Shown here piece by piece: positions 52,430 to 54,931 of a stretch of 57,551 nucleotides of DNA. The notes under the pieces are model-generated. The model was given only the letters and a program-made list of their open reading frames with translations, ran no database searches and had not been told where the DNA came from. The position numbers and the translations under genes are program-made. Each line of letters begins with the position of its first letter. Positions within the stretch are counted from its first letter, which is position 1. Source of the DNA: Candidatus Magasanikiibacteriota bacterium (GTDB lineage: Bacteria > Patescibacteriota > Patescibacteriia > Magasanikbacterales > JACTTX01); the NCBI GenBank assembly GCA_015661005.1, contig JACTTX010000006.1:1-57551 (forward strand). The letters are read 5' to 3'.

Positions 52430-52458
52430 TTGACTTTCACCGGCGGCTGTGATTGAAT
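52430..52458 (+). promoter_or_regulatory. Candidate promoter of the structured leader and IS110-like gene
   Basis: TTGACT, 17-nt spacer, then TTGAAT with the extended -10 TG (TGATTGAAT). Confidence 0.5.
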
Positions 52459-52504
52459 GTCAAGTTCCGTGTTAGACGGGATAGTTTGGGGCGAAGGCCT
52501 CACC

Positions 52505-52563
52505 GGCGGAAGGGACGATTGGCATATTGTTTTCTAAACGAAGTTGCTGATGTCCCTTCCGCC
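52505..52563 (+). repeat. Hairpin module M0
   Basis: Stem GGCGGAAGGGAC/GTCCCTTCCGCC. The 35-nt loop is GATTGGCATATTGTTTTCTAAACGAAGTTGCTGAT. Tail hairpin at 52564-52604. Confidence 0.8.
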
Positions 52564-52709
52564 CTTCCACAGAGTCCACACTTTTGTGCGGATTCTGTGG
52601 AGGGACGTGAACTGTCTTGTTACTGCAAGACGAATGTTGGCGTGTCCCTCACAATTTTGCCACGATTTGAGTGCTGTCCCATAAAGACGACACTGTGGGT
52701 GTGGCATTA

Positions 52710-52766
52710 GGGCTTGCGGACGATGGGCGGATTGTTCCTAACGTGGAATGTGGTGTCCGCAAGCCC
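52710..52766 (+). repeat. Hairpin module M1
   Basis: Stem GGGCTTGCGGAC/GTCCGCAAGCCC. The 33-nt loop is GATGGGCGGATTGTTCCTAACGTGGAATGTGGT. Tail hairpin CCTTCCTTTCA...TGAAAGGAGG at 52767-52810. Confidence 0.85.
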
Positions 52767-52867
52767 CCTTCCTTTCAGTTCCGATGATCTTTATCGGGAT
52801 TGAAAGGAGGACGAAGATGCGGCTGTCTGGGACGTCAAAAAATTTGTCCTCCTCATGAATTAACGTT

Positions 52868-52926
52868 GGCCAGCGCAACGAAGAGGGTGGTGTGTTTAGC
52901 ACGATCAAACTTTTGTTGCGCTGGCC
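52868..52926 (+). repeat. Hairpin module M2
   Basis: Stem GGCCAGCGCAAC/GTTGCGCTGGCC. The 35-nt loop is GAAGAGGGTGGTGTGTTTAGCACGATCAAACTTTT. Tail hairpin CCTTCC...GGAAGG at 52927-52968. Confidence 0.8.
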
Positions 52927-53016
52927 GCCTTCCTTTTGTTCCGAAATTTTCGGCACAGCAGGAAGGCGCGTAATGGAGCTTGTTGAATGACGTAGAAGGT
53001 GTTGCGCCTTCAAACC

Positions 53017-53073
53017 CGGCTTGCGGACACCTCAATGCACGTTAGGAACAGGACATGCATCGTCCGCAAGCCG
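53017..53073 (+). repeat. Hairpin module M3 (loop inverted relative to M1)
   Basis: Stem CGGCTTGCGGAC/GTCCGCAAGCCG. The 33-nt loop ACCTCAATGCACGTTAGGAACAGGACATGCATC is the reverse complement of the M1 loop except for two patches of 6-7 nt. Tail CCTTCCTT...AAGGAAGG at 53074-53116. Confidence 0.85.
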
Positions 53074-53237
53074 CCTTCCTTTTGTGTCCAACATTTTGTT
53101 TGATTCAGAAGGAAGGTGCGATCATGGCGGTGTCCAACAAAAGGACGACGAATATCGTGCACCTTCATTTGTCCCTTTATTGGGACGCAATCACAACCTG
53201 TCCCGAGAATATCGGGACGCAACGCAAGGAGGAGCCA

Positions 53238-54680
53238 ATGGTACGTTTCATCGGAATCAGACATCGGGTGAAGAAGCTTTCCGATGGCGACTCCAGCCCG
53301 ACGCAGGTCTGCGTCATTGTGGACGGCACGGTCAGAACCTATGACCTGGACACCGAGACCGACGAGCTTGACTGGGTGCTCGGTTATTACCCCACGAGCT
53401 GGCGGCTGGCCGTGAACGGCGAAGACGACGCGCTCCTGAACGAGCTCAAGAACGGCCGACATCGGCATCACCTTCGCTTTCGCAAGGTAAAGAAAAACGA
53501 GGATGCGGCCAAACTCTCCAACACGCACGTCGTGAAGGAGCTGGATGGCAAGCCGCACGTTCTGGAAATCCCGGCCTCATACGACGGCTTCAAGCCGGAC
53601 GACGTCGTCGGTATGGCGCTTGGCGGATCGGGCGACCGGCTGGCTTTTGCGCTGTCCCGTCGGGCCGAGGAGCTCTCCGGACAGACGGCTGTCATGCGCA
53701 TTCGGTCGGCCAAGCTCAAGGCATGGCGCGAGGATCACTTCAAGCGAGAGAAGGACGAGGACGCCAAAACCTTGGCCGAGCTCGTGCGGGACAACGAGGC
53801 CGATTTCTTTCCGACGACAGGTCGGGATCGCGTTCAAATCCGGTTGGTGGAGACCTGGCGCAACCGCGTGGACGCGATGAAGGCGCGGATTGGCGGCGAA
53901 CAGCGCCTGCGCTCGCGCCTCATCGGCCTGATCTTCTGCTCCGAGGAAGGCAAGTATCCGGAGGGTGAGATTGAGGTCGCGTACGAGAAAGCACGCGCGA
54001 ACGATCACATCATCCAGGCCTTGATTAAGGAGGAGGCCGCAAGGAACCGCGAGATTGAGAAGATCCTGCGTGACCTTCCGGTCTATGAGCAAATCTTCAA
54101 ACCGGTCAGGGGGATCGGCCCCATGATCGCCGCCCGACTCATTGTGGCGATCGGCGACATCCGTCGGTTTGAGACGGACGCCAAGCTCAAGGCGTTCTTG
54201 GGCGTTCACGTCATGGAGGGCGGTCGCTTTGGCCAGCGCGAGACGGGCAAGCAGTTCGTTCGTCGGCGGCAGGGCGAGGTTGCCAACTGGCACCCTGATG
54301 GTCGGCAGGCGCTGTTTCTGCTGACCGATCAGTTCAACCGCAACCCCAACTCCCCGTGGGGGCAGAAGTTGCTCGAGTACAAGGCCAAGTTCCGGACCAA
54401 GCACCCGTCTGTGGAGTGCGCCGCCTGTGGTGTGCCGTTGGAAGAGTGCCAGAAGGACAGCGGCAAGCTGACCGCGGTTAAAACGAGCACCGATCAGGGG
54501 GCCGAAGGGCTTCAGGATGGCTCCGACAAGAACGGCCGCCACGTCCGCCGCTACATGGACGGACACATCCACAAGATGGCTTTGTGGCGCACGGTCACGA
54601 AGTTCGTGGAGTGGCTCTGGCGCGAGTGGTGGCGGCTTGAGCGTGAGATGACCGCTGGCCATTCGGCCAAAGCGGCCTAA
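53238..54680 (+). CDS. IS110/Piv-family (DEDD + Transposase_20-like) protein with N-terminal extension and C-terminal Zn-ribbon-like insert
   Basis: VRGIGPMIAARLIVAIGDIRRFETDAKLKAFLGV matches the IS110 HhH/Tnp-domain signature (PGIG....A..L.AEIGD..RF......AYAGL). KDEDAKTLAEL resembles the KTDxxDA..LA motif. The C-terminus HKMALWRTVTKFVEWLW resembles the ..ARKL.. helix. The ATG at 53238 follows AAGGAGG by 5 nt. The longer ORF from 53055 overlaps module M3. Confidence 0.7.
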   Translation: MVRFIGIRHRVKKLSDGDSSPTQVCVIVDGTVRTYDLDTETDELDWVLGYYPTSWRLAVNGEDDALLNELKNGRHRHHLRFRKVKKNEDAAKLSNTHVVKELDGKPHVLEIPASYDGFKPDDVVGMALGGSGDRLAFALSRRAEELSGQTAVMRIRSAKLKAWREDHFKREKDEDAKTLAELVRDNEADFFPTTGRDRVQIRLVETWRNRVDAMKARIGGEQRLRSRLIGLIFCSEEGKYPEGEIEVAYEKARANDHIIQALIKEEAARNREIEKILRDLPVYEQIFKPVRGIGPMIAARLIVAIGDIRRFETDAKLKAFLGVHVMEGGRFGQRETGKQFVRRRQGEVANWHPDGRQALFLLTDQFNRNPNSPWGQKLLEYKAKFRTKHPSVECAACGVPLEECQKDSGKLTAVKTSTDQGAEGLQDGSDKNGRHVRRYMDGHIHKMALWRTVTKFVEWLWREWWRLEREMTAGHSAKAA

Positions 54681-54685
54681 AGTAC

Positions 54686-54746
54686 GAGCGGGAGAGACGA
54701 TGAGCCATTTGTTCTTCGGAACGAGGAGGTCAGTGTCTCCCCGCTC
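54686..54746 (+). repeat. Hairpin module M4 (3' UTR)
   Basis: Stem GAGCGGG(A)GAGAC/GT(G)TCTCCCCGCTC. The 34-nt loop is GATGAGCCATTTGTTCTTCGGAACGAGGAGGTCA, with a UUCG-capped inner hairpin. Confidence 0.75.
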
Positions 54747-54768
54747 GGCAACATCAGTAAAACACGGA

Positions 54769-54823
54769 TTCATGAGACGAAAGCAATGGTGTCCTTAGGA
54801 CGTGTGCAGATGTGTCTCATGAA
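54769..54823 (+). repeat. Hairpin module M5 (3' UTR)
   Basis: Stem TTCATGAGAC/GTCTCATGAA. The 35-nt loop is GAAAGCAATGGTGTCCTTAGGACGTGTGCAGATGT. Confidence 0.75.
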
Positions 54824-54844
54824 CGGCAGGCGTGTGAAATTAAC

Positions 54845-54894
54845 AAAGAGACGATCAATTTGCTGTCGAAAGACGTGCAATCGGATGTCTCTTT
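54845..54894 (+). repeat. Hairpin module M6 (3' UTR)
   Basis: Stem AAAGAGAC/GTCTCTTT. The 34-nt loop is GATCAATTTGCTGTCGAAAGACGTGCAATCGGAT, with a GAAA-capped inner hairpin. Confidence 0.75.
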
Positions 54895-54898
54895 TCTT

Positions 54899-54931
54899 GG
54901 AGGGTGATCCTGCCTCACCCTCCTTTTTTTA
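54899..54931 (+). terminator. Intrinsic terminator of the IS110-like unit
   Basis: GGAGGGTGA-tcctgcc-TCACCCTCC followed by TTTTTTT. Confidence 0.8.

Follow-up and report, generated by a model that had tools for sequence, protein, structure and literature searches.

Contig JACTTX010000006.1 of Candidatus Magasanikiibacteriota bacterium carries a locus with one intact plus-strand open reading frame (ORF) placed between a promoter-like site and a strong intrinsic terminator. We analysed this locus within a stretch of 57,551 nt of the forward strand (57.5 kb, hereafter the window). The ORF is the gene tasR (tas for short), and paralogous stem-loop modules occur both in its leader of 781 nt and in its 3' region of 251 nt, lengths that agree with those given in an initial annotation of this DNA. 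The modules are treated here as putative tigRNA units of a TIGR-Tas system, a type of system first described in 2025 (Faure et al., Science, PMC12045711).

Twelve stem-loop units around a single gene

Twelve units flank tasR, T1 to T9 upstream and T10 to T12 downstream (Table 1), as found by a hairpin scan followed by an explicit pattern scan; the initial annotation had counted seven, four in the leader and three beyond the gene. A single rule describes all of them: variable stem, closing C, G(A/U), 9 nt, U, G-mini-hairpin-C, G(A/U), 9 nt, U, G, stem. Each variable segment, or spacer, is thus preceded by a box C (C-G-A/U) and followed by a box D (U-G), at both positions and in 12/12 units, and an inner hairpin of 3-5 bp separates spacer A from spacer B. 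In the register alignment of the units the invariant columns are C-G, U-G-U, A-C-G and U-G. The shared loop layout proposed at the outset is therefore real, with loops of 33-39 nt instead of 33-35 nt and with variable segments of exactly 9 nt in 24 of 24 cases, in a pattern scan that permitted 8-10 nt.

The outer stems differ between units and yet remain paired, as had been claimed, only their length being 6-13 bp and not 8-13 bp. In the window 97% of the cells of these stems pair, against 71% in shuffles, and 37 cells carry a double change (9.1 in shuffles). Changes on both sides are seen in seven of the eight outer pairs, and pairing falls to 32-55% when the partner columns are slid out of register. 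The whole leader is extremely structured when folded (z = -20.5). All 12 pattern matches of the window lie inside 2.4 kb, whereas shuffled windows yield a mean of 0.34. A covariance model, R1, was built from the 12 window units alone, and a window scan run without filters revealed no unit beyond them, the weakest unit scoring 38.6 bits and the best other site 18.3 bits. Eleven units are sense to tas, and T8 is antisense.

Related loci contain the same units. The scan of homologous loci suggested by the initial annotation gave 294 R1 matches at E ≤ 1e-3 in 81 loci, every one on the sense strand, with strong covariation: in an alignment of 150 of these matches, which leans towards structure because it was fitted to the model, 99.3% of cells pair and 426 show double changes, compared with 110 in shuffles. 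The explicit pattern occurs 410 times in sense and 4 times in antisense in 80 homologous loci (6 in shuffles), almost always with 9+9-nt spacers and within about 1.5 kb on either side of tas. GA is the commonest form at both box C positions across the family (354/430 and 334/430). CTT is enriched 0 to +5 nt 3' of the stems, with up to 36 occurrences per offset against 7.9 expected, and AAG is enriched just 5' of the 5' arm; the CTT corresponds to the CUU motif published for tigRNA processing. Of the 590 TasR homologues the closest is 70% identical, and those with a named host come from Candidate Phyla Radiation (CPR, Patescibacteria) bacteria; a genome scan for TasR relatives returned 131, nearly all of them in metagenome-assembled genomes of Patescibacteria.

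At its 3' end the unit is closed by a terminator hairpin (54899-54923) followed by a run of seven T, and no further terminator-like site exists on the plus strand from 52460 to 54899. T10 begins 5 nt past the tas stop codon. Mini-hairpins of the form GTCCC..GGGAC occupy positions 53171-53186 and 53200-53218 of the tas 5' untranslated region (UTR), each followed by GCAA; the first is also kept in two homologous loci, L091 and L043, in a three-locus alignment. Rfam models recognised only tRNAs in the region, matches to mir-613 and ycf2 lying far below the gathering scores.

The unit had been described as much richer in G+C than its surroundings. This holds for the tas coding sequence (0.616, with a third-position value, GC3, of 0.80 against 0.51-0.62 in neighbouring genes) but not for the arrays, whose G+C of 0.49-0.51 is that of the window (mean 0.494). 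In 58 homologous loci the G+C of tas also lies above that of the outer flanks, with a mean excess of 0.10 and an excess of more than 0.05 in 45 of them, and gene neighbourhoods of tas differ between close relatives. Both observations fit mobility or strong compositional selection. As first noted, 60 bp separate the promoter-like site from the 5' end of a tRNA-Arg(tct) gene; this adjacency is not special in itself and was rejected as an integration signal, tRNA density around the 81 tas loci being 0.041 per kb, about the average of CPR genomes.

Table 1. Features of the tasR locus, in window coordinates. R1 scores refer to the covariance model built from the 12 units.
Feature	Position	Strand	Description	Basis
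tRNA-Arg(tct)	52294-52370	-	divergent from the unit; own promoter-like site	
Promoter-like site	52431-52459	+	TTGACT (52431), 17 nt, TTGAAT; TG two bases before second hexamer	read from sequence
tigRNA unit T1	52505-52563	+	stem 12 bp; spacer A TTGGCATAT, spacer B AGTTGCTGA	pattern scan; R1 47.7 bits
Structured linker hairpin 1	52560-52607	+	5' arm starts in CCCTTCC; 3' arm overlaps 5' stem arm of T2	inverted repeat I2 (22-nt arms, 82% complementary)
tigRNA unit T2	52600-52650	+	stem 7 bp; spacer A GAACTGTCT, spacer B ATGTTGGCG	pattern scan; R1 38.8 bits
tigRNA unit T3	52658-52706	+	stem 6 bp; spacer A TTTGAGTGC, spacer B CACTGTGGG	pattern scan; R1 38.6 bits
tigRNA unit T4	52710-52766	+	stem 12 bp (GGGCTTGCGGAC); spacer A TGGGCGGAT, spacer B GGAATGTGG	pattern scan; R1 45.3 bits
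Structured linker hairpin 2	52770-52808	+	starts in CCTTCC tract after T4; 3' arm overlaps 5' stem arm of T5	inverted repeat I5 (16-nt arms, 88% complementary)
tigRNA unit T5	52805-52853	+	stem 8 bp; spacer A AGATGCGGC, spacer B CAAAAAATT	pattern scan; R1 43.6 bits
tigRNA unit T6	52867-52927	+	stem 13 bp; spacer A AGAGGGTGG, spacer B TCAAACTTT	pattern scan; R1 47.5 bits
Structured linker hairpin 3	52926-52968	+	CGCCTTCC...GGAAGGCG; 3' arm overlaps 5' stem arm of T7	inverted repeat I3 (21-nt arms, 86% complementary)
tigRNA unit T7	52962-53011	+	stem 8 bp (GAAGGCGC); spacer A AATGGAGCT, spacer B AGAAGGTGT	pattern scan; R1 39.3 bits
Unit T8	53017-53073	-	spacers TGCATGTCC / GCATTGAGG	hairpin and pattern scans; R1 43.2 bits on minus strand
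Structured linker hairpin 4	53074-53116	+	CCTTCCTTTTG...CAGAAGGAAGG; 3' arm overlaps 5' stem arm of T9 by 5 nt	inverted repeat I4; three-locus alignment A4
tigRNA unit T9	53112-53166	+	stem 8 bp (GAAGGTGC); spacer A TCATGGCGG, spacer B CGAATATCG	pattern scan; R1 41.7 bits
tas 5' UTR	53171-53234	+	two mini-hairpins; ribosome-binding site AAGGAGGAG at 53226-53234	direct repeat D2; sequence
tasR	53238-54680	+	480-aa TIGR-associated protein	NCBIfam profile, start from homologues, AlphaFold2, Foldseek
tigRNA unit T10	54686-54746	+	stem 12 bp, one bulged A; spacer A TGAGCCATT, spacer B GGAGGTCAG	pattern scan (core 54694-54739); R1 42.8 bits
tigRNA unit T11	54769-54823	+	stem 10 bp; spacer A AAGCAATGG, spacer B GTGCAGATG	pattern scan; R1 44.6 bits
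tigRNA unit T12	54845-54894	+	stem 8 bp; spacer A TCAATTTGC, spacer B GCAATCGGA	pattern scan; R1 45.2 bits
Intrinsic terminator, end of unit	54899-54933	+	9-bp stem (6 G-C pairs), 7-nt loop, then TTTTTTTATT	terminator scan

The TasR protein and its RuvC-like domain

The mechanical ORF starts at an ATG at 53055, and the database gene call is of 518 aa; a look-up of the protein itself returned no record. Alignment with 27 homologues places the gene start at the ATG at 53238 (MVRFIGIRHRVKK), which has AAGGAGG upstream, and the protein thus comprises 480 residues. It consists of an N-terminal RuvC-like domain with an insertion of about 85 residues, a coiled coil and a C-terminal Nop-type RNA-binding domain. 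NCBIfam model NF052498 (TIGR_Tas_endo, "TIGR-Tas system RNA-guided endonuclease") matches with 150 bits, against a cut-off of 100, over profile positions 7-215 of 215. The IS110 models, in contrast, are missed: NF033542 scores 51.3 bits for a cut-off of 140, and NF051857 23.7 for 180. In Pfam, the search proposed initially returned a significant but partial PF02371 match (E 2.9e-7, profile positions 3-42 of 87) and no match to PF01548. With modules present in homologous loci, strong covariation and this significant match, the initial annotation is not overturned by its own refutation tests on these points. The C-terminal signature of the IS110 family had hence been read correctly, whereas the identification of the protein as an IS110/Piv recombinase does not hold.

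Structural comparison points the same way. The only sequence match in the PDB is 9MTY, a TIGR-TasR structure. The AlphaFold2 model of the protein (mean pLDDT 86, pTM 0.82) was ranked by Foldseek closest to the TasR of 9MTY (E 4e-11), then to the recombinases guided by bridge RNA, IS621 and ISCro4 (about 1e-6 to 1e-7), and to TasH (about 1e-6), with Nop5 of box C/D ribonucleoproteins (RNPs) matching marginally (E 0.04-0.13). The alignment with chain A of 9MTY extends over 358 columns. In the model the order of strands and helices fits an RNase H-like fold, and the insertion lies between residues 37 and 123, bracketed by strands 31-37 and 123-127. The last helix spans residues 441-479 of 480; there is no 27-residue tail, and hence no long C-terminal Tyr/His (Y/H) loop for tigRNA processing.

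The catalytic positions of the RuvC-like domain are altered. At the first of them, strand β1 reads IGI-R8-HR, and homologues have R, Q, E, V or L in place of R8. The second site, in β4 (strand 123-127), holds M126 followed by a residue that is variable and non-acidic. In the DxxD motif, located in a K-D-E-D-A helix, K172 takes the place of the first Asp, and D175 aligns with the second Asp of IS621 and of the Thermoproteota protein TaTasR. A conserved acid is consequently absent at three of the four DEDD positions in the homologue alignment; D175, as well as D122 and D197, is conserved. The YESGS segment of ISCro4, which we take to hold the IS110 nucleophile, aligns with EGGRFGQ, where no serine is conserved among 28 homologues, the alignment being weak there.

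In window 54418-54535 (residues ~394-432) the Nop domain contains a Cys-rich segment, C-x2-C-x7-C, which may be a small zinc knuckle, and after it a low-confidence stretch with pLDDT values below 50 (residues 410-432). The Cys-rich segment is missing in some homologues, and others have inserts of 60-100 residues at this place.

Kinship, proposed function and competing explanations

The features of the locus are those by which stem-loop TIGR arrays are defined in print (Faure et al., PMC12045711), with two spacers of 8-12 nt per unit, each framed by a box C and a box D, and variable but palindromic stems instead of edge repeats. The closest published counterpart is the TasR clade of CPR bacteria, in which arrays occur on both sides of tas and a hairpin lies between the spacers, the RuvC domain is expanded and catalytically dead (CsTasR has R8 and V126), 9 nt are paired per spacer, CUU is found at the stem bases and the Y/H loop is lacking; CsTasR showed no cleavage in vitro and acts in RNA-guided transcriptional repression (Xu et al., bioRxiv 10.64898/2026.09.09.750476). 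The locus in the window shares with that of CsTasR, from Candidatus Staskawiczbacteria, a CPR host, a protein in the range of ~480-550 aa with an expanded RuvC domain (dead in CsTasR, predicted dead in the window), R8, a non-acidic residue near position 126 and an insertion between β3 and β4 (~80 residues in CsTasR, ~85 here). Both systems have units up- and downstream of tas with variable palindromic stems and a short inter-spacer hairpin, 9 nt per spacer and no long C-terminal Y/H loop; CUU tracts at stem bases are seen in part of the window units. They differ in protein sequence (CsTasR was compared by its published description), in the box C of the window, which is C-G-A/U, and in the loop-inverted unit and the linker hairpins overlapping the next stem described below, neither of which appears in the preprint. 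The system is therefore one already named and characterised, and no new kind of system; the belief that the arrangement was undescribed did not survive comparison with the published stem-loop arrays on both sides of tas. Another relative is the TasR of Candidatus Buchananbacteria RIFCSPHIGHO2_02_FULL_56_16, given as the example with an inactive RuvC (Faure et al., PMC12045711). The contig named there, L034 among the 131 relatives, encodes a TasR that is 42% identical to that of the window over residues 2-480; its locus contains eight units of the 9+9 pattern, in contrast located only downstream of the gene under the strict pattern, with spacers and stems unrelated to those of the window.

Among solved structures the best match, by sequence as well as by structure, is TaTasR of the dual-repeat type (PDB 9MTY). 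It has the same Nop domain, coiled-coil dimer and RuvC-like N-terminus, and its RNA likewise contains two 9-nt spacers framed by box C and box D (U-G). In TaTasR the edge and loop repeats do not vary, the tigRNAs measure 36 nt and the DEDD-type RuvC (D11) is active; the window has variable stems for the edge repeats, a hairpin for the loop repeat and a RuvC predicted to be dead. Archaeal and eukaryotic box C/D s(no)RNPs (Nop5/Nop56/58; PDB 3NMU, 3PLA) also place a Nop-domain coiled-coil dimer on a pseudo-symmetric RNA in which C/D and C'/D' anchors frame two guide segments. Their boxes are RUGAUGA and CUGA, unlike C-G-W and U-G in the window, and published TIGR targets are DNA, not RNA. The non-canonical boxes and the marginal Nop5 match speak against such an RNP; its partners fibrillarin and L7Ae were not searched for in the window.

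In our view the locus very likely represents a TIGR-Tas array of the stem-loop type on the chromosome, whose TasR belongs to the CPR clade and is predicted to be nuclease-dead; the model for it is an RNA-guided, DNA-binding repressor. By analogy with characterised systems, transcription would run from ~52431 to the terminator at 54899 as one precursor, or would use additional internal promoters. Processing would take place in the linkers, close to the CUU/CCUUCC tracts that mark the bases of the stems, with a host RNase as the probable enzyme, and a TasR dimer would bind each 50-60-nt unit, whose pseudo-twofold layout is what a symmetric Tas dimer would require. Of the DNA, 9 nt on one strand would pair with spacer A, and the 9 nt next to them on the opposite strand with spacer B, so that the two spacers together would specify an 18-bp target with no protospacer adjacent motif. 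Since the protein has R8, K172 and no acid near 126/127, the complex should bind DNA without cutting it and block transcription, like CsTasR. RNA-guided DNA binding and repression is thus the likely function, judging from the sequence and from this relative.

One rival explanation holds that the locus is an active IS110-family insertion sequence whose modules are bridge-RNA-like guides directing recombination of the element. The likeness of the modules to the binding loops of bridge RNAs, pointed out in the initial annotation, was evolutionarily apt, as a bridge RNA resembles two fused tigRNAs (Faure et al., PMC12045711). IS110/IS621 recombinases (PDB 8WT6, 8WT9) have a homologous RuvC-like domain and a Nop-type (PF02371) architecture, their bridge RNA carries split guide segments in internal loops, and the IS621 and ISCro4 enzymes are the second-best structural matches; the PF02371 match, the differing gene neighbourhoods of close relatives and a tas G+C atypical for the host would suit an insertion sequence as well. 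The protein, however, stays below the IS110 equivalog cut-offs (51 vs 140 and 24 vs 180 bits), fails to match PF01548, lacks the conserved acid at three of four DEDD positions and has no conserved serine in the region of the IS621/ISCro4 nucleophile. The RNA, for its part, consists of 12 one-loop units of ~50-60 nt with boxes C and D, whereas an IS110 bridge RNA is one two-loop molecule (~180 nt, within a range of ~150-250 nt). The gene is present once in the window, no evidence of transposition was found for the locus, and we regard an active insertion sequence as very improbable indeed. Still less probable is a reading of the hairpins as intergenic palindromes of a generic kind (REP-like elements, attenuators or terminators, for example) that are unlinked to the protein. 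The window does hold another, unrelated palindromic hairpin family, and the leader is extremely structured (z = -20.5), but the C-G-W-N9-U-G register is exact in 12/12 units, which occur beside tas and nowhere else in the window, and they co-occur on the sense strand with tas homologues in most of the 81 loci.

That the system is instead a nuclease-active TIGR-TasR defence, cutting invading DNA as TaTasR or ParTasR do, is improbable, if less so than the two preceding alternatives. The NCBIfam family is named an endonuclease, the RuvC fold is retained and D175, D122 and D197 are conserved. Against this stand R8 at the first Asp (R/Q/E/V/L in the clade), the non-acidic β4 and K172 at the first Asp of DxxD, together with the behaviour of the related CsTasR (R8, V126), which showed no cleavage in vitro.

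A number of points weigh against the repressor model or parts of it. The catalytic death of the RuvC domain is a prediction from sequence and from the analogy with CsTasR. The promoter-like site, a candidate start of the pre-tigRNA/tas transcript, is a weak match to the consensus that a consensus scanner missed because position 2 of its -10 hexamer is not A. CUU occurs in or just after the 3' arm in only 7 of the 12 window units, and the antisense T8 should be non-functional in the sense transcript. Targets are also wanting. The texts consulted leave the assignment of target halves to spacers unspecified. Both arrangements with the spacers on opposite strands (rc(A)+B as well as B+rc(A), where rc is the reverse complement) were therefore searched with 24 queries in ~72 kb of the same organism, made up of the window and ~14 kb from the same population. 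No target with ≤2 mismatches was found in this DNA, so that the suggested complementarity of the variable segments to genomic sites was not borne out. Six matches had 3 mismatches, where a control with shuffled partners (A with the B of another unit) predicts 2.3 per 24 queries and the same-strand geometry, also a control, yielded 4; this is no persuasive excess. Three of the six came from an A-rich spacer of T5. In 81 homologous 7-kb loci, 27 opposite-strand self-targets at 3 mismatches compare with 33 in the same-strand control, which means that there is no signal of auto-targeting. For exact 18-mer searches of large viral collections chance matches are expected, a false-positive problem also noted by Xu et al. 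(10.64898/2026.09.09.750476).

Array variation and other features of the window

Unit T8 gives no R1 match on the plus strand up to E = 10 and forms a proper unit on the minus strand only. It shares with T4, in opposite orientation, an identical inner hairpin and, except for the terminal pair, an identical 12-bp stem, and their spacers differ (3/9 and 6/9 positions identical). The simplest account of T8 is a T4-like unit that underwent inversion of its loop between the two 12-bp arms of its stem: these arms are inverted repeats, and such an inversion would yield exactly T8. In L091, whose TasR is 67% identical, both units with the T4/T8 stem are in sense orientation. In the sense transcript the complement of T8 can pair over a long range with T4, as it does in the minimum-free-energy fold of the leader. 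Neither a scan nor inspection revealed a minus-strand promoter for T8.

Hairpins of the form CCUUCC...GGAAGG directly follow T1, T4, T6 and T8, each lying between a long-stem unit and the next short-stem unit. The 3' arm of such a linker overlaps the 5' arm of the next unit, so that both structures cannot form together. Pairing in linker hairpin 4 is kept through compensatory changes in L091 (4045-4091) and L043 (2870-2915). Alternative pairing of the 5' arm with upstream sequence was rejected as a family-wide rule, being enriched only about two-fold (35 vs 16 of 441), and is a trait of a sub-lineage rather than of the whole family. By position, T9 is the orthologue of the unit that comes last upstream of tas in L091 (4083-4136) and in L043 (2906-2957). 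The three units do not differ in their 8-bp stem (GAAGGTGC/GCACCTTC) or in their boxes, and their spacers are unrelated; the adjacent proteins are 64-67% identical, and the divergence of the units falls mainly within the 18 spacer positions.

One possibility is that the pre-tigRNA works as a device for refolding, its linker hairpins and the stem of the unit that follows competing for 5 nt; if so, the maturation or loading of alternate units would be ordered or regulated. Arrays may also evolve through replacement of spacers on a preserved scaffold, as the orthologous units with the same stems and unrelated spacers suggest, and through inversion of a loop between a unit's own stem arms, as in T8. 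In the preprint of Xu et al. (10.64898/2026.09.09.750476) the words antisense, inverted and GC content are absent and linkers are discussed by length only. Even so, it is on the whole unlikely that the locus reveals TIGR biology missing from the literature consulted, be it pre-tigRNA refolding, scaffold-preserving array evolution or both; either would bear on open questions of tigRNA processing and spacer change.

The overall significance is modest, the locus being a new example of a known system; the observation is nonetheless stronger than first noted, and the initial annotation had caught the right evolutionary kinship. According to published work, most TIGR loci are on contigs that lack a wider genomic context. 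The present example is chromosomal and fully intact: it has 12 units and a defined terminator, its start codon is confirmed, and it comes with host context of 57 kb. Applied to related CPR loci, the unit rule and the covariance model yield ~300-400 units and hardly any false positives, and the spacer-only divergence, the linkers, the loop-inverted unit and the tas G+C excess (~10 points) bear on spacer turnover, processing and mobility.

The second palindromic hairpin family of the window occurs at 3489-3545 (+), 41296-41378 (+), 45825-45903 (-) and 51973-52041 (-), four copies against 0.01 expected, and also on contigs L081-L090. It has an invariant apex, CGTGTTCT(C/T)CAATCAAGAACG, semi-conserved proximal arms (TGCAAATGTC / GACATTTGCA) and outer arms that differ per copy and are still self-complementary. 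The copies are intergenic, on both strands, at or just past the ends of long ORFs or a tRNA gene. Exact apex matches were found in 10 metagenome contigs, nine of them in Ga0206225, and three of these nine overlap the window. None of the 80 tas loci contains this family and nothing in Rfam matches it; in appearance it resembles a REP/MITE-like element (repetitive extragenic palindrome or miniature inverted-repeat transposable element) of the lineage. Orphan tigRNA units were considered and rejected, as no C-G-W precedes the segments, the segments pair mutually, R1 scores are ≤14 bits and the tas loci lack the family.

Elsewhere in the window, a 23S rRNA gene on the minus strand (region 8442-14100) spans 4162 bases, compared with a model of 2925 positions; it includes a group I intron at 10936-11195 and presumably carries further insertions. 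A 5S rRNA gene lies at 8442-8560 on the minus strand, no match to 16S rRNA was obtained anywhere in the window, and a gene of the type IV secretion system (T4SS)-pilin type is present. This gene and the intron-bearing 23S rRNA gene suggest that the host is a CPR bacterium. ARAGORN predicts two tRNA-Ser(cga) genes, at 52071-52144 (-) and 37836-37925 (+). The former, beside the array, scores 36 bits with the Rfam tRNA model and at only 74 nt has no long variable arm; its identity as tRNA-Ser(cga) is doubtful. Finally, contig Ga0206225_1000484 (L090) is 99.8% identical to window positions 54529-57551, which indicates that the same organism is present in the public metagenome Ga0206225. This contig breaks inside tas at one end, and at the other its positions 1-1656 extend the window by 1656 bases past the right end.

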